Shown here in pieces: positions 49,827 through 57,309 of a stretch of 64,000 bases of DNA. Each line of letters begins with the position of its first letter. Within the stretch, counting starts at the first letter, position 1. This stretch comes from a bacterium. GTDB taxonomy: Bacteria; Hinthialibacterota; Hinthialibacteria; Hinthialibacterales; Hinthialibacteraceae. The notes beneath the pieces were generated by a model. That model saw only the letters and a list, made by a program, of their open reading frames with translations. It had not been told where the DNA came from and made no database searches. The translations under genes were made by a program, and so were the position numbers. The stretch is taken from assembly GCA_963662285.2 (NCBI GenBank), contig CAXXMV010000001.1, positions 800,001-864,000 of the forward strand. Reading direction: 5' to 3'.

Positions 49827-49884
49827 TGCTATTAATTCAATGGGATTGAACTGTCACAATAAACCTACAGGTAAACAGACATCA

Positions 49885-50844
49885 ATGAAAAAAGCACTAC
49901 TACGCAGCATCGGCATTGGCATATTCGCATATCTACTGATTTACGTCATCGATATATCAGAATTGGCGACGGTTCTGCGTTCGTTCAATTTATGGGCGTT
50001 AGTATATGTCCTCCCATTCCACTTTAGTTTATGGACATTACGCGTTTTGCGTTGGAAAATTCTGCTTAAAAACGAAGATATTAATCTTCCCTTTTTCGAT
50101 ATCCTGGCTATAGCGGCATCCGGTTTTTTTCTGGGCTGCATGACGCCGGGACGTTTAGGCGAATTCGCCAAAGTCAAGTTTTTGATGAACGCAGGTTATC
50201 CATTTCGCGGGGCCTTTATGTCATCACTGCTGGAACGTTTCCTTGATCTGGCGGCATTGTTTTTTTACGTGGTTTTCGCTGTAGTAGTATGCTGGACTGT
50301 ACTGCCAGACGCTTTGATCTTTTATCTGGTTATAGCGGCGCTTGGTTTCATTGGGCTGCTGACGACATATATTAAACGAAGAAGAATCAAAACCATCATC
50401 CTGCAATTGATCCCGGAAACAGTTTCGGGAAACGTTGAAGAGAAACTAAGCATTCTCAGTTATTCGATCAATGCAACACGCGGCAGTCAACGCTGGGGGC
50501 TGTTGGGATGCTCTATCGCCATGTGGGGATTAAACCATATAATCATATACCTGTTATTCCAGGGAGCGGGATTCACTCTACCACTGTATTACACCTTCGC
50601 TTTTTCAACCATTGGATCACTGGCATCATTGATCCCCATATCAATCTATGGCGTGGGCATCCGGGAATCGATAATGATCGCTATGCTGCCCCTAGTTGGC
50701 TACTCACCAACAGAAGCCAAAACAGCCGGTTTCATGTTTGGCTTTATGTTCGTTATCCTGCTTATATATCATACGTTATGGGGTTTTATATGGTGGATGA
50801 GTCCGATCATGCAGCGTTATTTTTCGAAAGAATCAACTCCGTGA
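49885..50844 (+). CDS. Lysylphosphatidylglycerol synthase TM-domain (flippase-like) protein
   Basis: RVLRW; TPGRLGE..K; ERFLD; IPISIYGVGIRE. Confidence 0.88.
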   Translation: MKKALLRSIGIGIFAYLLIYVIDISELATVLRSFNLWALVYVLPFHFSLWTLRVLRWKILLKNEDINLPFFDILAIAASGFFLGCMTPGRLGEFAKVKFLMNAGYPFRGAFMSSLLERFLDLAALFFYVVFAVVVCWTVLPDALIFYLVIAALGFIGLLTTYIKRRRIKTIILQLIPETVSGNVEEKLSILSYSINATRGSQRWGLLGCSIAMWGLNHIIIYLLFQGAGFTLPLYYTFAFSTIGSLASLIPISIYGVGIRESIMIAMLPLVGYSPTEAKTAGFMFGFMFVILLIYHTLWGFIWWMSPIMQRYFSKESTP

Positions 50845-52137
50845 CCGTTTATGCTGGCCAACCTCTCCCGATTGCACCAATGCGTATTTCATCAGTATCG
50901 GGCCAAGAATTTGATTAATGGCTATGCATGCGATAACCACTGTCTTCAAGTCGCTGGCCCAGATAAATTCATCCTGATGCAATAGAGCAACCAATCCCAA
51001 ACTGACCCCCGCTTGAGGAAGAAAAACCATCCAATATGAACGGGGAGAAGGTATTGCGAGTTTGCTGACGCGCGATGCAAACCAGGTGGAGAAGGCCACC
51101 ATAATCATCCGGAAACTGACTAGCAACAATGCTAAAGGCCACATTTTGGCTAAGGCGCCCAAGTTAAGAGAAGCCCCGGCAACGCAGAAGAATATCACAT
51201 AAATTATCAGCGATCCCTCTTCAATAGTCTCGATCAATTCAACGCCCTGGCTGGAAGCGTTAGTAACCCATATTCCAGCCGCAACGCAGACCAATAGTGG
51301 ATCGAGCTGAATCGAATGTGCTCCGATTGATATCAAGTAACAAAACGCCAAAAGAAATAGAATCGCATCCAAGCGAATTCGTGACAGATAATAGGAGATG
51401 CAGACGCCCGCCAATACGCCAAATAAAATAGAAAAAACTATCTCTTTTACTAAAGCGAATAGTTTTATCCATTCCCAAGCGTCCATCCCCTGCTCCATAA
51501 CGCCGACGGTCATCAGAACGCAAGTATACATAACAATGACGATGACATCTTTGACTACGGCAACGCCCAAAGCCAGATCGGTGCACATACCTGCGGATTT
51601 GGTTTCGGTGATTATGGCGATAGTGGTTGATGGAGACTGAGCGATGGCGATCACGCCAATGATCAATGCAACGCTCCACTGGGCAACATTGGAATAAGAG
51701 CCGAACCACGGGGTGAAAGTAATCAGCGCCCAGGTTGAGATAGTTCCCAGGGCGAAAAGCCATATTGTCTGACTGAGGGTTATGGAGACAATTCCTCTCC
51801 AACACTTTTTTATTGCTTCAAGACGCAGTTCTCCACCAGCAGTCAGAGCAATTAAGGTTAGAGCGATTTGGTCGATCAACTGGAAATCGGCGACCGAAGC
51901 ACGGGTAATCAATCCCCCTAGATAAGGTCCAATCAACATACCGCCGATCAGATAACCCGTGATTTTAGGTAATTTGATACTGGCAAGAATTTCCCCTAGA
52001 AGATAGCCCGTTAAAATAACGAAGCCTAATGAAAATGCATTGGCGCCATGCAGATTGGGCAGTTCACCAAAAGGATAGAGCCGCACAATCAGCACTAAAG
52101 CAATAATAAGAAAGAGAGCGCTTAAACGATTAATCAT
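50833..52137 (-). CDS. Cation:proton antiporter (Na+/H+ exchanger family), subunit 2
   Basis: LPKITGYL..G.LIGP; AGGEL; SPSTT; KDV; FF..AGA.L; PQAGV. Confidence 0.9.
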   Translation of the reverse strand: MINRLSALFLIIALVLIVRLYPFGELPNLHGANAFSLGFVILTGYLLGEILASIKLPKITGYLIGGMLIGPYLGGLITRASVADFQLIDQIALTLIALTAGGELRLEAIKKCWRGIVSITLSQTIWLFALGTISTWALITFTPWFGSYSNVAQWSVALIIGVIAIAQSPSTTIAIITETKSAGMCTDLALGVAVVKDVIVIVMYTCVLMTVGVMEQGMDAWEWIKLFALVKEIVFSILFGVLAGVCISYYLSRIRLDAILFLLAFCYLISIGAHSIQLDPLLVCVAAGIWVTNASSQGVELIETIEEGSLIIYVIFFCVAGASLNLGALAKMWPLALLLVSFRMIMVAFSTWFASRVSKLAIPSPRSYWMVFLPQAGVSLGLVALLHQDEFIWASDLKTVVIACIAINQILGPILMKYALVQSGEVGQHKRSRS

Positions 52138-53528
52138 AAAACCGGCTCCTCTACTGATTGGCGAGAATTTGTGGAAGAACCGTTTTTGTCAACGTCATTA
52201 GGTCGAGGCTTGACATCTCCGTATGATTTCAACACGGATGTCAGTAAATATGGACCAATCAACTGCTGGATCAACACGGCGAGAATCACGACGCCTATAG
52301 CGGTTTCACCAATAGCGCCGGGATGAATCAATGCAAAATCTACTACCATTGCCAGCGCCACGCCGCCTTGAGGAAGCATCGCCCAGCCCAGCCTGCCTTT
52401 GGTGCGTTGTTTGGGTTCTAATAACCAGTCCACTGCAATCCAACTTCCCAGCCAAAAACCTCCTAACCTGGCGACGCAATAAACCATGGTTAAAAGTAAA
52501 ACGGTTGGAGTAATAGGAGGCCACATGGCGCCTACCAAAATCATGAAGATTACAAAAAAAGGCTTTTCTGTTTCCAGCATGCGTGAGGTAATTCTGCTTC
52601 GAGCAAAGTTTGGCAGATTGACCAGGGTAATACCCATAATCATATTGACGAACAACGGAGAAAGCCGCAGGTATGAAGATAAACCACCAGAGAAGATTAC
52701 CGCCCCGGCCAGCAATAACAACATCTCATTATTGCCCAACCGGTGATTGGTTAAATAATGGAGCAGCCATCCTAATATATAGCCCAGCAGTAAAGTTAAT
52801 CCCAACCACTCAAAACCACTCATAATGTGTACTATGGGAGTTGCGATTGGGTTGAAGACGCCAATATCAGAAACGGAGGAAGACGCCCCGGATAGAATAC
52901 CAACATAACCAATGGATGTGGGATGATTAAAACAATACCAGATTCCCATAGCCAACACAGCAATTGGCGAACGGATCTCAGTCAAAAGTTGAAGCAATTT
53001 GGTAATATCGCCTTTAGCATCCAAGTCGCGCTTCAATAAAGCCAATGCTGAATATGTAGAAACAGCCGCGATGCAACCCAGCAGGAAAGCAAGATCAGAT
53101 ATTCCCACACGCCTTCCTTGAGAGGCGATTCCATTCGAGATAAATCCTATCCCGAATAAATGCAAAAACCATGGTGTTGAAATCAAGATAAATCCATAAC
53201 AGACGACAAAGGTGATAATGGATATAATCGCTCCCACCATCCATACTTTCAATGGAATACGCGCAATCACCTTTTTGTCAAATTGCAATCCGATCAGCAG
53301 ACCTATCCATCCCAGGCATAGACTTATAACCGGGGATAACTGCCGTAATGCGTCATGATTCAATACATTTGATACAGAAGGACCAGCCAGTAAACCAATA
53401 ATAAGGAATTCGGTTCCCGCCAAAAATAAATATTGCGTTCCCAAAGAGAAACGTTCGCGGAACAAGGTCAACCTCGACGCGGAGAAGCCAATCAATAAAA
53501 GAATAACAAAACCGAGAACAACATTCAT
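52134..53528 (-). CDS. Divergent cation:proton antiporter-like membrane protein, subunit 1
   Basis: About 12 TM segments; G.L.GP; LGWIGLLIGLQ; SPLFVNM; PQGGVALA; 4-bp overlap with the next gene. Confidence 0.82.
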   Translation of the reverse strand: MNVVLGFVILLLIGFSASRLTLFRERFSLGTQYLFLAGTEFLIIGLLAGPSVSNVLNHDALRQLSPVISLCLGWIGLLIGLQFDKKVIARIPLKVWMVGAIISIITFVVCYGFILISTPWFLHLFGIGFISNGIASQGRRVGISDLAFLLGCIAAVSTYSALALLKRDLDAKGDITKLLQLLTEIRSPIAVLAMGIWYCFNHPTSIGYVGILSGASSSVSDIGVFNPIATPIVHIMSGFEWLGLTLLLGYILGWLLHYLTNHRLGNNEMLLLLAGAVIFSGGLSSYLRLSPLFVNMIMGITLVNLPNFARSRITSRMLETEKPFFVIFMILVGAMWPPITPTVLLLTMVYCVARLGGFWLGSWIAVDWLLEPKQRTKGRLGWAMLPQGGVALAMVVDFALIHPGAIGETAIGVVILAVLIQQLIGPYLLTSVLKSYGDVKPRPNDVDKNGSSTNSRQSVEEPVL

Positions 53529-53670
53529 TTATATTTCTCAAAGTTATTATTTATTAATAGTTTATCTAATAATATTAATAAATTACGTAGATTTTCATTA
53601 AATTAATGTAGTAGGCGAATTATTTGGATTTCAGCATAATAATGCATGTAAGTTTAATTATATGGAAGGA

Positions 53671-53997
53671 TCATCGAGAGAGTATAAAATCAACCGGAAC
53701 GGTAAAAAGTTTTCCTACGCTGGGATCAGTAAGATCAATATCCAAGTCTCGGAGGACATTCAACAACCTATCAACGATTTCTTTGCCAGGTATAAGCGCG
53801 AAAATATTTTTGTTGAAATCACGCGATCCACGAGTAGATTGCAATAATCCGGCAAATATAGGGACGTCTTTAGCCAGGACGCGCTCCATGGCTACGCCAT
53901 CAATAACCGTTGCATTGACAATTTCCAATTCAACCAATTCCGCGAGTATATCATCAAGAAATTCTTCCTGATTTAATATAATTACAAGAAGTTGCAT
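53671..53997 (-). CDS. PII-like (GlnB-fold) protein
   Basis: 108 aa; MQLLVIILN..E.LD.IL..L....I..AT..DG.....K.I......G.LFTVPV matches the PII beta-alpha-beta pattern and the C-terminal G..F..PV. Confidence 0.75.
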   Translation of the reverse strand: MQLLVIILNQEEFLDDILAELVELEIVNATVIDGVAMERVLAKDVPIFAGLLQSTRGSRDFNKNIFALIPGKEIVDRLLNVLRDLDIDLTDPSVGKLFTVPVDFILSR

Positions 53998-54119
53998 AGA
54001 AATAACCAAAAATCAAAATTCTTATTTAGAAACATAAAAACGATTTTTACATAATAAATCAAAAATTAATTGGAAACAGAATTATTCTTATCTCCCTCAT
54101 ATTCGGATAGATAAGGTAA

Positions 54120-54578
54120 TCATATTTCTTCACGGGACTTAATTAACGAAAGGATATCTTCAGCTGATTCAGATTTTAGTACTTGATTACGAAAATCAGC
54201 TTTCCGGAAGAAACGGGATATTTTACTGAGGATACTTAAGAAAGAAGTTTGCAATCGCGGCTCTCCCGCCAGCATGAATATTAAATTCACTGGTTGCCCG
54301 TCAAGCGAATCAAAATCAACGCCTTGAGAACATATACCAAGGCTCAAAACTAATCCCTGAACTCCCTTAGCAGTAGCATGTGGAATAGCAATTCCCTGAC
54401 CGATGCCCGTGGTTTGGATATTCTCACGCGCAAGAAGAGCCTCTACCAATGCATCAATATCAGCCACATTACAGCTTTGAGCGGCGAGTTGCGCCATTTC
54501 AGACATGACGCTCGGTTTAGATTGACCTTGGATATCTAGCGATATACAGTTAACCGAAAGAATTTCAGACAGATTCAT
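54120..54578 (-). CDS. PTS EIIA (Ntr/fructose-type) domain protein
   Basis: RE....TGIG.GIAIPHA (phospho-His); GVDFDSLDGQPV.LIF; ATG 54578 preferred over the longer ORF call. Confidence 0.93.
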   Translation of the reverse strand: MNLSEILSVNCISLDIQGQSKPSVMSEMAQLAAQSCNVADIDALVEALLARENIQTTGIGQGIAIPHATAKGVQGLVLSLGICSQGVDFDSLDGQPVNLIFMLAGEPRLQTSFLSILSKISRFFRKADFRNQVLKSESAEDILSLIKSREEI

Positions 54579-54913
54579 GTAGTATATTCCTATCATCCAA
54601 GACTTTTGAATATTATACAAAAAGGAGAACGAGTAACAATACTTGTGCATAAACGTTTTAAAAATAATCTGAAAAATATTGTAAAAATTCGTTAAAATTT
54701 TCTTTTTAAAATCCTGTAAAACTTGCCTTTTTGGGATAAAAAGCACTTATTTGCAAGCATATTTTCGCGAATCGATCTAACAAAAAAAAGTATCCGCGAT
54801 ATATTTCAAACCAGACAATTATATGAGAATCAGATTAAATTCATAAAAAGCAAAATAATGCTTGATTTTTGCCGTATGTTTAATGACAATATTATATATA
54901 GAGGAAATTGAAG

Positions 54914-55342
54914 ATGAGCAAATTTTGGAAATCATTAGTAATACTAATTGTTTTATTTATTGGAGTAAATATTGCCAAAAAAGTCATCAACATCACCAAA
55001 ACAGCATTGACATCATCCGATGGCAAATACGATGTCATTGATGGCATGGTTGGCAAGGTTGGCGTCGATAAGTTTTTGGAGATAAAAGAAAAACGGGATA
55101 CTTTCAACCTTCCAGCATTTAAAACTGGATTAATGATGTTCCAAACTCAGCATGGACGGCTTCCAAAAGATATGGCTGAATTAGAAAACGCAGGAGATGT
55201 TGGATCAGAAGTAACCCGAGACCGCTTCGGGAATCAGTTTCATATGCAGATAATGAACAACAAATCAGTAATTCTGATGAGCGCAGGTAAAGATAAGATT
55301 AAAGGAACAACAGACGATTTGAAATATAATATCTCATTGTAG
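54914..55342 (+). CDS. Membrane-anchored protein with a GspG-like C-terminal domain
   Basis: GAGGA RBS; N-terminal TM; GRLP..M.EL, DRFGN.F and MSAGKDKIKGTTDDL. Confidence 0.7.
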   Translation: MSKFWKSLVILIVLFIGVNIAKKVINITKTALTSSDGKYDVIDGMVGKVGVDKFLEIKEKRDTFNLPAFKTGLMMFQTQHGRLPKDMAELENAGDVGSEVTRDRFGNQFHMQIMNNKSVILMSAGKDKIKGTTDDLKYNISL

Positions 55343-55417
55343 AGATGAGCCATATATTTATTATTCGTTTTTGTAATTAGACTAAAGGTCAATAGGCCCC
55401 GAACGGAGGACCTAGTC

Positions 55418-56020
55418 ATGGAAACGATCCTTCATGAAGAAGAACAAATTTCGCTGTTGGGGAAGATGCTGTATTATTCAGCAAAAAATCTAACATCCCG
55501 CGAACGTGAAATCTATGATCATCTTGTCGAATCTTTGCTGCGTAAAGTTCACAAAAAACGTGAGGTCGAACAACGACATCACTCCAGCGATCACTATTTA
55601 CTTAACGCCCAGCATGAAGCGATTAAGAATTCGATTCGCAACAAAAGCCCGGAAGATATTTGCCGCATGTTTGTTGAAGCCTGGAACAAGCAAGATTTCG
55701 AGACGGAATTTTTCTGCTTGGCGAATTGCTTTCCTATGAGGAAAAAGAAAACCAACGATGTCAATGAATATGTGCTGCAACGTATGGGGAAATATCAAGA
55801 CCGGAAAAATGTCGGTCCAATCATCAAAAAAGCCCTTGATATCACATCATCACAAACCCAAGGCAACAAGATATCAATCTACTGCATAGAACTCCATAAG
55901 ATGCCGAATAGAGACTTGACGCTTCACCGTGAATACGAGTTCTTGTATGAGAATAATGCCTGGCGAATCGCCGATTATGAAACAATAAAAAGCCATGAAA
56001 TCGCTTCTGAACGGAAGTGA
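55418..56020 (+). CDS. Hypothetical protein (C-terminal NTF2/DUF4878-like pattern)
   Basis: GGAGG RBS; SPEDICRMFVEAWNKQDF ... ENNAWRI. Confidence 0.65.
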   Translation: METILHEEEQISLLGKMLYYSAKNLTSREREIYDHLVESLLRKVHKKREVEQRHHSSDHYLLNAQHEAIKNSIRNKSPEDICRMFVEAWNKQDFETEFFCLANCFPMRKKKTNDVNEYVLQRMGKYQDRKNVGPIIKKALDITSSQTQGNKISIYCIELHKMPNRDLTLHREYEFLYENNAWRIADYETIKSHEIASERK

Positions 56021-56448: not shown

Positions 56449-57309
56449 ATGACTATGTGGTTGGAACGTCTTCGTCGTAAATCTCCTTCGATAAATAAGG
56501 AGATATTGGGAAAGAGGTATATTCAGACATCCTCAATCCTACTAATTCTTATCTTCCTGACTACCGTTGGTTTTGCAGGCGGGTCAATCTATTGGATAGT
56601 TAAAAAGGATAACGAATTAGAAAAATCCCGCCGCATCGAATTAGAACTACGCAACAACATCAAAGAGAGAGATTACGTTATTCAGCAATTTCGCCAGCGA
56701 ATTCAACAACTGGAAAGGCGCGTTGAAATCTTAGACGCCATACAGGAATTAAGCGCTAATAACGTATCAAAAGAAGACCAACTCAAAATTGCAAAACAGG
56801 TTGATGAAACCTGTTCAAAATATGGCCAGAATCCTTTTTTGATTTTAGCTATTATGTCTACCGAATCATCTATTCAACCCTGGGCTGCTTCTAGCAAAGG
56901 CGCCAGCGGCTTGATGCAGATTATGCCCAGCACTGGTCGCTATCTATCCAAACAGGTAAAAGAATCACCACAGTTAATCGGCGTCAAAGAGGATGAAGAA
57001 TTCGACGTTCCTCATTACCGCAATATCAATGGCAATATCGAATTGGGAACGCTTTACCTGACCCAGTTAATGCTCAAATATAAAAGCCTGGAATACGCCA
57101 TTTACGCCTACAACCTGGGGCCTGGACTCTTTGAAAAACGGCGTGAAACAAGTGGACCTTATCCCAGAAAATATCTGGCTAAAATAATGAAACGATACGC
57201 CAAATTAGCTTCTGATCATAATTTTGAAGATAATCAAGTCGCTGCTTCACTTTACACCTCCAACGATATTAATAAGCTTCTGGTTTTAGCCAATATTCCT
57301 ACCTATTAA
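56449..57309 (+). CDS. Membrane-anchored lytic transglycosylase (SLT) with coiled coil
   Basis: TM segment and coiled coil; AIMSTESS (catalytic Glu), GASGLMQIMP, AYNLGP. Confidence 0.93.
   Translation: MTMWLERLRRKSPSINKEILGKRYIQTSSILLILIFLTTVGFAGGSIYWIVKKDNELEKSRRIELELRNNIKERDYVIQQFRQRIQQLERRVEILDAIQELSANNVSKEDQLKIAKQVDETCSKYGQNPFLILAIMSTESSIQPWAASSKGASGLMQIMPSTGRYLSKQVKESPQLIGVKEDEEFDVPHYRNINGNIELGTLYLTQLMLKYKSLEYAIYAYNLGPGLFEKRRETSGPYPRKYLAKIMKRYAKLASDHNFEDNQVAASLYTSNDINKLLVLANIPTY

Follow-up and report, generated by a model that had tools for sequence, protein, structure and literature searches.

A portable pair of an EIIA and a PII-like protein encoded beside a two-gene CPA antiporter and other antiporters, and its probable role in salt and pH balance

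A window of 64,000 nucleotides from a bacterium of the Hinthialibacteraceae (Hinthialibacterota; GenBank assembly GCA_963662285.2, contig CAXXMV010000001.1, positions 800,001 to 864,000) carries, on its minus strand across positions 50833-54578, four co-oriented genes that encode an EIIA protein of the phosphotransferase system (PTS), a PII-like protein and two dissimilar membrane proteins of the cation/proton antiporter (CPA) superfamily, called here CPA-a and CPA-b. On balance, we read this locus as an antiporter module controlled by an EIIA and PII-like switch that couples PTS phosphorylation to monovalent cation/proton antiport. The EIIA/PII-like pair is not tied to the heteromeric antiporter pair; it forms a portable cassette and is probably a switch for salt and pH balance. 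A wider proposal is put forward tentatively, as possible rather than probable. In it, the pair is a plug-in switch on unrelated antiporters (the CPA pair, NapA-type CPA2 and Mrp) across many phyla, PTS phosphorylation sets ion and pH homeostasis, possibly with a small-molecule signal added, and CPA-a, which lacks the transport Asp, is the receiver of the switch.

The EIIA gene (54120-54578, minus strand, 152 amino acids) encodes a PTS_EIIA_2 protein of the Fru/Mtl/Ntr class, and the PII-like gene (53671-53997, minus strand, 108 amino acids) a divergent PII-family protein recognised by a fold model and a wide-family profile. CPA-a (52134-53528, minus strand, 464 amino acids) is, by family-profile alignment, a degenerate full-length paralogue of CPA-b (50833-52137, minus strand, 434 amino acids), a membrane-only antiporter of the CPA superfamily. 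The start of EIIA was placed at the ATG at 54578, which yields the N-terminus MNLSEIL common to orthologues; the longest open reading frame (ORF), from a GTG at 54746, was judged over-extended against the orthologue N-termini. The ATG taken for the PII-like gene likewise gives the match to orthologues. CPA-a and CPA-b overlap by 4 nucleotides (nt) in the ATGA at 52134-52137, with an AGGAG at 52146-52150, 9 nt upstream of the CPA-b start, and we read this overlap as translational coupling of the two genes. The original prediction had described four co-oriented genes for an EIIA with intact phospho-His, a PII fold without the usual T-loop motif and two dissimilar CPA-family proteins with a 4-nt overlap; these observations are confirmed, and the interpretation placed on them is partly supported.

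One genome per species was scanned with an alignment of the PII-like protein, giving 58 loci, the ORFs of which were called and then scored with profiles from the window's four proteins. This check of gene-neighbourhood conservation, named by the original prediction, was strongly positive. In 52 of the 58 loci, EIIA immediately precedes the PII-like gene. The CPA-a/CPA-b pair adjoins the PII-like gene in 46: it follows directly in 43, and in three Holophagae loci (L023, L039 and L045) it is found upstream, on the opposite strand. CPA-a is in two pieces, without CPA-b, in L002; a contig end cuts inside CPA-a in L053; the sequence stops just past the PII-like gene in L014, L021 and L049; and the 1.2 kb of downstream sequence in L048 gave no match. 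The gap from the EIIA stop to the PII-like start, obtained for 56 loci, is 0 nt in 35, -7 nt in 2 and 9-23 nt in 16, and the 122 nt of the window is the largest seen. At 39 of 50 CPA-a/CPA-b junctions, the two genes share an NTGA overlap whose start codon is in frame with CPA-b (38 of 48 without the duplicate loci, L071 being the same as L006 and L072 the same as L009). Loci with the four-gene order bear the source labels Acidobacteriota, Myxococcota and Eiseniibacteriota or, for members of the window's lineage, 'Omnitrophota'/Hinthialibacter-like. Within the window's phylum, the PII-like gene occurs in 29 of 35 genomes, including all 20 of its family, and two loci from other families of the same order (L066 and L068) keep all four genes at low identity. 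The neighbours outside the four genes are lineage-specific.

The original prediction linked the two regulators to a heterodimeric antiporter. They are not specific to it, as the EIIA/PII-like pair is also found with Mrp and NapA-type antiporters. In L017 (Candidatus Vecturithrix, Moduliflexota) and L018, Pfam matches place the EIIA and PII-like genes between mnhE, mnhG and mnhB, mnhC, mnhD. L070, which comes from the same class as the window, reads PII-like, EIIA, mnhE ... mnhB, mnhC, mnhD, so that the pair heads the Mrp operon, with its own gene order reversed relative to the other loci. The two regulators are also found as one polypeptide: of the best 150 among 610 family representatives, four (P0135, P0198, P0212 and P0214) are EIIA::PII-like fusions, with PTS_EIIA_2 N-terminal and the PII-like domain C-terminal. 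The 90% cluster of P0214 holds 14 near-identical members from NCBI, JGI, ENA and Logan, 11 of them 274 amino acids long and one labelled Candidatus Cloacimonadota. A metagenome scan with a member of this cluster returned 21 loci at 50-94% identity, in which the fusion is one ORF of 274-278 amino acids in 17, split in 1 and cut by a contig end in 3. The split one (L087:1322-2158) consists of ORFs of 114 and 149 amino acids and may reflect a frameshift, an assembly error or a real split. An antiporter gene of 385-388 amino acids stands directly upstream of the fusion in 16 of the metagenome loci, and four more have a C-terminal antiporter fragment at the contig end (blastp E = 1e-60 to 1e-102), so a NapA-type gene precedes the fusion in 20/20 loci having upstream sequence; the intergenic gaps, measured in 13 loci, are 9-209 nt. 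The fusion-linked antiporter is of NapA type in its PF00999 match (E = 1e-64), in its similarity to NapA (5bz3/4bwz, E = 3e-44) and in its ATS, IDD and PRGE motifs. Because of the fusions and the zero-nucleotide junctions, EIIA and the PII-like protein are expected to act as one unit, and because the pair sits beside three unrelated antiporter designs, antiport is the process most plausibly under control.

A quick tree of 85 PII-like sequences over 105 columns, drawn rooted on the genome's canonical PII, places a fully supported branch between the module family and canonical PII. In this tree, the clade of the window joins the Mrp- and NapA-linked PII-like proteins and not the acidobacterial clade linked to the CPA pair (SH-aLRT 82), and the CPA-pair label requires at least 3 changes on well-supported branches. 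The tree is thus suggestive of partner switching by the PII-like proteins.

The module's EIIA matches PF00359 with 115.2 bits (cut-off 27; E = 3e-33) over 143 of 144 model positions. It scores 103.7 bits against TIGR00848, a generic fruA-type domain model with a cut-off of 103.5, and 84.5 bits against the PtsN equivalog model TIGR01419, below the cut-off of 138.7, and so is not a canonical PtsN. It is 34% identical to the genome's canonical PtsN (C1:961708-962187), of which, from the sequences, we take it to be a paralogue. His67, in the motif GIAIPHAT, is present in 51/51 orthologues, those from Myxococcota included, and is invariant in a 34-sequence alignment; we take it to be the phospho-acceptor, as in the EIIA family.

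A phosphorelay that could serve this His is encoded in the same genome (7.29 Mb, 92.5% complete), which has one HPr (C1:963173) and one enzyme I (EI; C1:963438). Both belong to a PTS cluster with the order hpf-EIIA-hprK-ptsH-ptsI (C1:960972-965300, locus L060), in which HprK was recognised by reading the ORF, without a family scan. The cluster lies about 107 kb from the module and holds its own 159-residue EIIA, the canonical PtsN, so that the module's EIIA sits outside it. HPr and EI were also found in 4 of 5 other module-bearing genomes. No match to PF02378 (PTS_EIIC) occurs anywhere in the genome, at its 92.5% completeness, and the organism's PTS appears purely regulatory. The absence of EIIC, rpoN and amtB from the vicinity, noted earlier, was borne out: rpoN is on another contig (contig 2), and the three amtB genes are all elsewhere in the genome, two of them immediately next to canonical P-II genes and one at a distance of about 0.5 kb from a P-II fragment of 44 residues. 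The genome also encodes a diadenylate cyclase. The genome has five EIIA_2 genes: the canonical one, that of the module and three fusions of about 230 amino acids in which an HTH-like N-terminus precedes EIIA_2 (L062, C8:413880-417293; L063, C1:682531-685950; L064, C2:1272707-1276111). The fusion in L064 is directly upstream of a gene resembling ClC-type chloride channels, as recognised by ORF reading without a Pfam scan.

The PII-like protein gave no Pfam or NCBIfam match even at E = 10, PF00543 included. Its assignment comes from structure and from wider profiles. An AlphaFold2 model built on a 23-row alignment (pLDDT 84.3, pTM 0.76), which replaced a single-sequence fold too poor to use (pLDDT 59), has the order beta-alpha-beta, two short helices at the place of the PII T-loop, and beta-alpha-beta. 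With this model, Foldseek against the Protein Data Bank (PDB) put GlnB, GlnK and SbtB first (probability 1.00, E = 4e-4 to 2e-3, TM 0.50-0.59). A Foldseek-independent (VIA) search listed CPII (Z 9.1), TM0021 (9.0), SbtB (8.7), DUF3240 (8.2) and CutA (7.8), with unrelated ferredoxin-like folds interleaved among the PII-type matches from Z 8.5 downward. A profile search through 1.84 billion representatives found 610 clusters at E≤1e-3, 208 of them at E≤1e-10; PF00543 is matched at E≤0.01 by 51 of 101 full-length family representatives, and the wide profile of these 101 aligns with the genome's three canonical PII proteins by hhalign (probability 94.5, E = 8e-8). The wider alignment alone bridges to PII: the narrow profile gave a probability of 3.2 against the same three proteins and nothing significant against PDB sequences (best EF-Tu, E = 0.14). 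ESM Atlas, taken as a lead only, places the protein with a P-II cluster at a score of 0.90. Rather than a typical PII, the PII-like protein represents a remote branch of the family. An identity as a c-di-AMP receptor of the DarA/PstA type, considered because of a resemblance, was set aside, as neither a Pfam match nor any listed structural match backs it.

Nine residues are invariant in 34 module-linked PII-like sequences (E11, E23, L41, D44, P46, I47, F48, A49 and G50), all but two of which fall in the T-loop-equivalent, with the motif D-(V/L)-P-I-F-A-G; the AlphaFold2 model predicts this stretch as two helices. Canonical PII carries a T-loop modification site, Tyr51 or Ser49, and C-terminal RxR residues for nucleotide binding. 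No T-loop Tyr/Ser motif was found in the PII-like alignment, where the aligned stretch is SRDF in the window's protein, SR(A/S)Y in some relatives and IDFS in others, and no C-terminal RxR segment either; the chain stops 6 residues after beta4. The window's lineage has G-K-L-F aligned with the B-loop G-K-I-F of canonical PII; in acidobacterial and myxococcal orthologues of the same module this G-K-(L/I)-F is replaced, and because of its loss in the acidobacterial ones the case for a conserved adenylate site is weakened. Two other members of the family differ in architecture. P0129 (405 amino acids), a single sequence on one 9.7-kb contig, has an N-terminal PII-like domain and a C-terminal PilZ domain, PilZ being a c-di-GMP receptor fold; in P0190, the PII-like part follows a PrmC methyltransferase, which may be a gene-calling read-through.

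The PF00999 match of CPA-b (E = 2.5e-27) covers residues 42-416 of 434. Its comparison with NapA (4bwz) by phmmer gave E = 0.0053, and with a family of 16 NapA-type proteins by hhalign a probability of 96.5 and E = 9e-10. The site is composed of S168-P169, K196-D197, R343 and Q375-A376-G377; all 45 sequences compared share S168, P169, D197, R343, Q375, A376 and G377, and 42 have K196. When laid on NapA, K196-D197 corresponds to D-D, A-Q-S-P to A-T-S-V and P-Q-A-G to P-R-G-E. The residue aligned with the NapA Lys of transmembrane helix (TM) 10, Lys305, is V347, and the invariant R343 lies four residues earlier, in a profile alignment that could be off by one turn in TM10. CPA-b therefore departs from the usual pattern of Asp, Asn or Gln at motif position 6 and, on TM10, Lys or Arg at motif position 8. 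According to the available portions of a broad CPA survey, transport requires the second of the two TM5 residues, which is Asp in 94% of sequences; the residue before it is D, N or Q, and 95% have K or R in TM10. Among the matches listed from the survey, 12 of 32, a Lys at motif position 6 goes unmentioned (PMC6181914).

CPA-a gave no match in Pfam, and a search of PDB sequences was likewise empty; ESM Atlas clusters of CPA-a carry PF00999 in part, a lead only. By BLASTP, CPA-a and CPA-b align in their C-terminal halves only (28% identity, E = 8e-9), and by hhalign of the two family profiles over the whole length (398 columns, probability 99.8, E = 4.6e-28). The equivalents of K196-D197 are R186-S187 within LTEIRS, in keeping with the KD and LTEIRS that had been assigned to subunits 2 and 1. 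No Asp or Glu occupies the column equivalent to D197 in 48 CPA-a sequences, the five most frequent residues being G (28), A (9), S (6), T (3) and H (1). As CPA-a has no carboxylate and is yet co-encoded and translationally coupled with CPA-b, it is probably a non-transporting partner, so far as sequence can tell, and possibly a docking subunit. The heterodimeric antiporter of the original prediction gains indirect support from the NTGA overlap in 39 of 50 loci and from the loss of Asp in all 48 CPA-a sequences. No CPA-a::CPA-b fusion was found among 29 longer relatives, all of which carry a single N-terminal CPA-b-like domain. These relatives, of about 1500 amino acids, have the K-D/R/QAG type of site at their N-terminus (K in 26/29, D in 29/29 and R in 29/29), and no CPA-a-like domain was found in them; because the type is present there without CPA-a, it is a clade feature that in these proteins has no need of CPA-a. 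In P0235-P0262, the CPA-b-like type takes up the first 460 amino acids, and the other 1000 are mostly without a Pfam family; P0236 ends in an Ion_trans channel domain of the voltage-gated type, and P0235 has a weak AAA_16 match.

Taken together, these features suggest the following mechanism. CPA-b would perform ion/proton exchange by means of its invariant Asp, and CPA-a, made in fixed proportion through the ATGA overlap, would pair with it as a non-transporting partner; relatives of the CPA fold work as dimers. EI and HPr would phosphorylate EIIA on His67, as we infer from the invariant His and from a genome that encodes both proteins. The state of His67 may then decide whether EIIA and the PII-like protein bind the cytoplasmic face of the antiporter, holding it off or on. 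Because the antiporters of the window have no cytosolic domain, the PII-like protein is read as a free-standing receiver, an adaptor that would be the counterpart of the CorC domain built into the E. coli antiporter YcgO. Its D-x-P-I-F-A-G loop, which stays constant while the antiporter partner changes, is for that reason a likelier contact site for EIIA or a ligand than for the antiporter. A complex prediction for EIIA with the PII-like protein, run without controls, gave scores of 0.02 and 0.01 against a mark of 0.32, which count neither for nor against binding. The net effect would be to tie ion and pH homeostasis to the PEP/pyruvate state, that is, to carbon and energy supply.

E. coli PtsN-YcgO is the closest established case, and it was left out of the precedents listed in the original prediction. 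In the available portions of two reports (PMC11808508; bioRxiv 10.64898/2026.08.14.744764), the CPA1 K+/H+ antiporter YcgO is inhibited when unphosphorylated PtsN binds its CorC domain, an interaction that becomes weaker once PtsN is phosphorylated. On that description, PtsN-YcgO (CvrA) resembles the module in having an EIIA of the Fru/Mtl/Ntr class the phosphorylation state of which controls a CPA-fold antiporter, a regulatory PTS without a role in sugar transport, and a small alpha/beta module that links EIIA to the transport helices from the cytosol. Whereas YcgO has built-in CorC and RCK domains, the candidate receiver here is a separate PII-family protein, and neither CPA-b, most of which is spanned by PF00999, nor CPA-a, which aligns with it end to end, has a soluble domain. 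In addition, EIIA is a dedicated paralogue encoded beside its presumed target rather than the global PtsN, and in place of a homodimer the antiporter has two genes, one of them for a degenerate member.

SbtB-SbtA, GlnK-AmtB and CPII similarly have a small PII-fold protein encoded beside the transporter that it is presumed to control, with the T-loop region as the most conserved part. Unlike SbtB, GlnK and CPII, the PII-like protein has no PF00543 match, no RxR and a T-loop-equivalent, D-x-P-I-F-A-G, that is predicted helical. It is also paired or fused with EIIA, a pairing not found for SbtB or GlnK in the literature searched. The partner antiporters work as dimers or Mrp complexes and not, in contrast to the targets of SbtB and GlnK, as trimers. 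CPA-b shares the fold and register of NapA/KefC-type CPA2 proteins, with an alignable unwound TM4 motif, TM5 Asp and TM11 motif. It differs from them in the K-D of TM5, as compared with D-D in NapA or Q-D in Kef (the latter from the available portions of PMC6181914), in Q-A-G instead of R-G-E in TM11, in the Val at the Lys305 position with an invariant Arg one turn away, and in having a degenerate paralogue alongside and no RCK/KTN domain. Mrp (Mnh/Pha) has no structural relation to the CPA fold, and in the window no Mrp genes adjoin the pair; the same EIIA/PII-like pair is nevertheless part of the Mrp operons L017, L018 and L070, and for this reason the same physiological role is expected for the Mrp-linked pair.

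Several observations weigh against this interpretation. The contacts among the four proteins are all inferred from sequence, and a PII-family protein, PII proteins being trimers, would fit awkwardly on a carrier of the CPA type, which is a dimer. L004, L007, L008 and L019 have no adjacent antiporter, and with L067 and L069 they make six loci in which the EIIA/PII-like pair, or the PII-like gene alone, has no antiporter beside it; for this reason the antiporter link is frequent and not obligatory. The PII-like gene has no adjacent EIIA in 6 of the 58 loci, of which L009, L013 and L015 keep the CPA pair. The fifth of the other module-bearing genomes, a metagenome-assembled genome of Myxococcota of unknown completeness, showed neither HPr nor EI. 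The spacers of 122 and 142 nt in the window leave a single transcript for its genes unsupported, and the tree is a quick one of 105 columns with weak support for its key branch. The CPA-b site is odd for a cation carrier: with Lys for the first Asp/Asn, Val for Lys305 and the displaced Arg343, its substrate is not certain, and the K-D/Val/Arg combination is unlike any cation site described in the available portions of PMC6181914.

Three other explanations deserve attention. The regulators and the antiporters could be co-regulated without contact, the pair controlling some other target and sharing with the antiporters a regulon for K+/Na+/pH stress. The six loci in which the pair or the PII-like gene stands away from antiporters would suit such an arrangement, as would the two-component-system-like genes, seen by ORF reading, beside the PII-like gene in L004 and L008, and E. 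coli PtsN has several unrelated targets, TrkA and KdpD among them. However, zero-nucleotide or overlapping junctions and an insertion in the middle of the Mrp operon are typical of subunits, not of regulon members, and the adjacency is kept over three antiporter architectures and several phyla, and we consider co-regulation alone improbable. A PII-like protein gated by ATP/ADP, cAMP or c-di-AMP, which plugs the antiporter in the manner of SbtB-SbtA or GlnK-AmtB and leaves EIIA a modulating or secondary role, amounts to the dual-control model of the original prediction with the PII-like protein as the main sensor. It would explain the fold of this protein, that of PII, SbtB and CPII, the homology of its family to PF00543 and the G-K-L-F kept in the window's lineage, and a diadenylate cyclase in the genome and the fusion of P0129 to PilZ are in line with a nucleotide signal. 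We nevertheless regard this as unlikely: acidobacterial and myxococcal orthologues lack the B-loop motif, the canonical RxR segment is absent, and invariance is centred on the helical T-loop-equivalent. The fusion of EIIA to the PII-like domain in four independent clusters, moreover, speaks against a secondary role of EIIA.

The last alternative, that CPA-a and CPA-b form separate homodimers or carry an anion, an organic cation or some other cargo in place of Na+/K+, seems to us very improbable. It would account for the K-D/R/QAG type in single-chain proteins of about 1500 amino acids without CPA-a, for the lack of a CPA-a::CPA-b fusion among the 29 longer relatives and for a Lys at motif position 6 that has no counterpart among the listed matches of the CPA survey. 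On the other side, transport by CPA-a on its own is unlikely given that it has no carboxylate at the position described as essential for transport (PMC6181914, available portions), a complex would fit both the 4-nt overlap and the pairing maintained in 46 of 58 loci, and the same regulators accompany bona fide NapA and Mrp Na+/H+ systems. We therefore retain the reading of a module in which EIIA and the PII-like protein act on the antiporter.

The spacers of the window and the genes around the module were inspected as well. The spacer between EIIA and the PII-like gene (53998-54119, 122 nt) is unusually long for this pair of genes. That between the PII-like gene and CPA-a (53529-53670, 142 nt) is AT-rich, and no conserved element was found in it: when 9 related spacers were compared, the start codon was the sole conserved part. 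A promoter-like site, TTGTTA-16-TATAAT (54612-54639, minus strand, 10/12), lies just 5' of the EIIA start, and a promoter-like pair of hexamers at 53598-53569 in the PII-like/CPA-a spacer; as the promoter scan gave 14 sites against a shuffle mean of 13.7, with no excess, the former is a lead only. The counts of a terminator scan equalled those of shuffles, and the spacers had no Rfam match at E≤1; a sub-threshold match to a CRISPR repeat falls inside the EIIA gene. A LPG_synthase_TM/flippase-like gene (49840-50844, plus strand) converges on CPA-b, the 3' ends overlapping by 12 nt, and this convergent neighbour is also kept in L001, L011 and L016. Upstream of and divergent from EIIA are genes at 54908-56020 and 56449-57309 (plus strand), comprising two small genes without a Pfam family, of 144 amino acids (with an N-terminal hydrophobic segment) and 200 amino acids, and one more; the divergent genes hold that position in 7 loci of the window's family. 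In L004 and L008 (4235-6791), both from relatives of the window's lineage, the lone PII-like gene adjoins a divergent pair resembling a response regulator and a sensor kinase, as recognised by ORF reading without a scan.

As to the standing of the module in the literature, the view that it is uncharacterised agrees with our searches: no description of an EIIA/PII-like/antiporter module was found in the full-text literature searched, where most subscription journals were absent, and EIIANtr together with antiporters led to the YcgO work and reviews only. The available portions of a CPA review (PMC7349511) and of a 2026 review of PTS-Ntr (PMC13104625) make no mention of PII or of heterodimers. 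The module is a variation on known kinds of control, PtsN on YcgO and PII-like proteins on transporters. To our knowledge, switching of Na+/K+/H+ antiporters after their synthesis is known in few cases, among them Kef with glutathione, RCK domains and PtsN-YcgO. The cassette described here stands beside three unrelated antiporter architectures, both in the window's lineage and in loci that bear the labels Acidobacteriota, Myxococcota, Eiseniibacteriota, Moduliflexota and Cloacimonadota. If the proposed control is correct, the regulatory PTS would gain a direct and widespread output in ion and pH homeostasis outside Proteobacteria, and a new branch of the PII superfamily would have a defined partner. 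For the antiporters themselves, CPA-a and CPA-b would be a first candidate for an active/degenerate heteromer of the CPA fold, and the K-D type of CPA site, as opposed to D-D, N-D or Q-D, would be defined and would offer a test of charge-balance models of these carriers.

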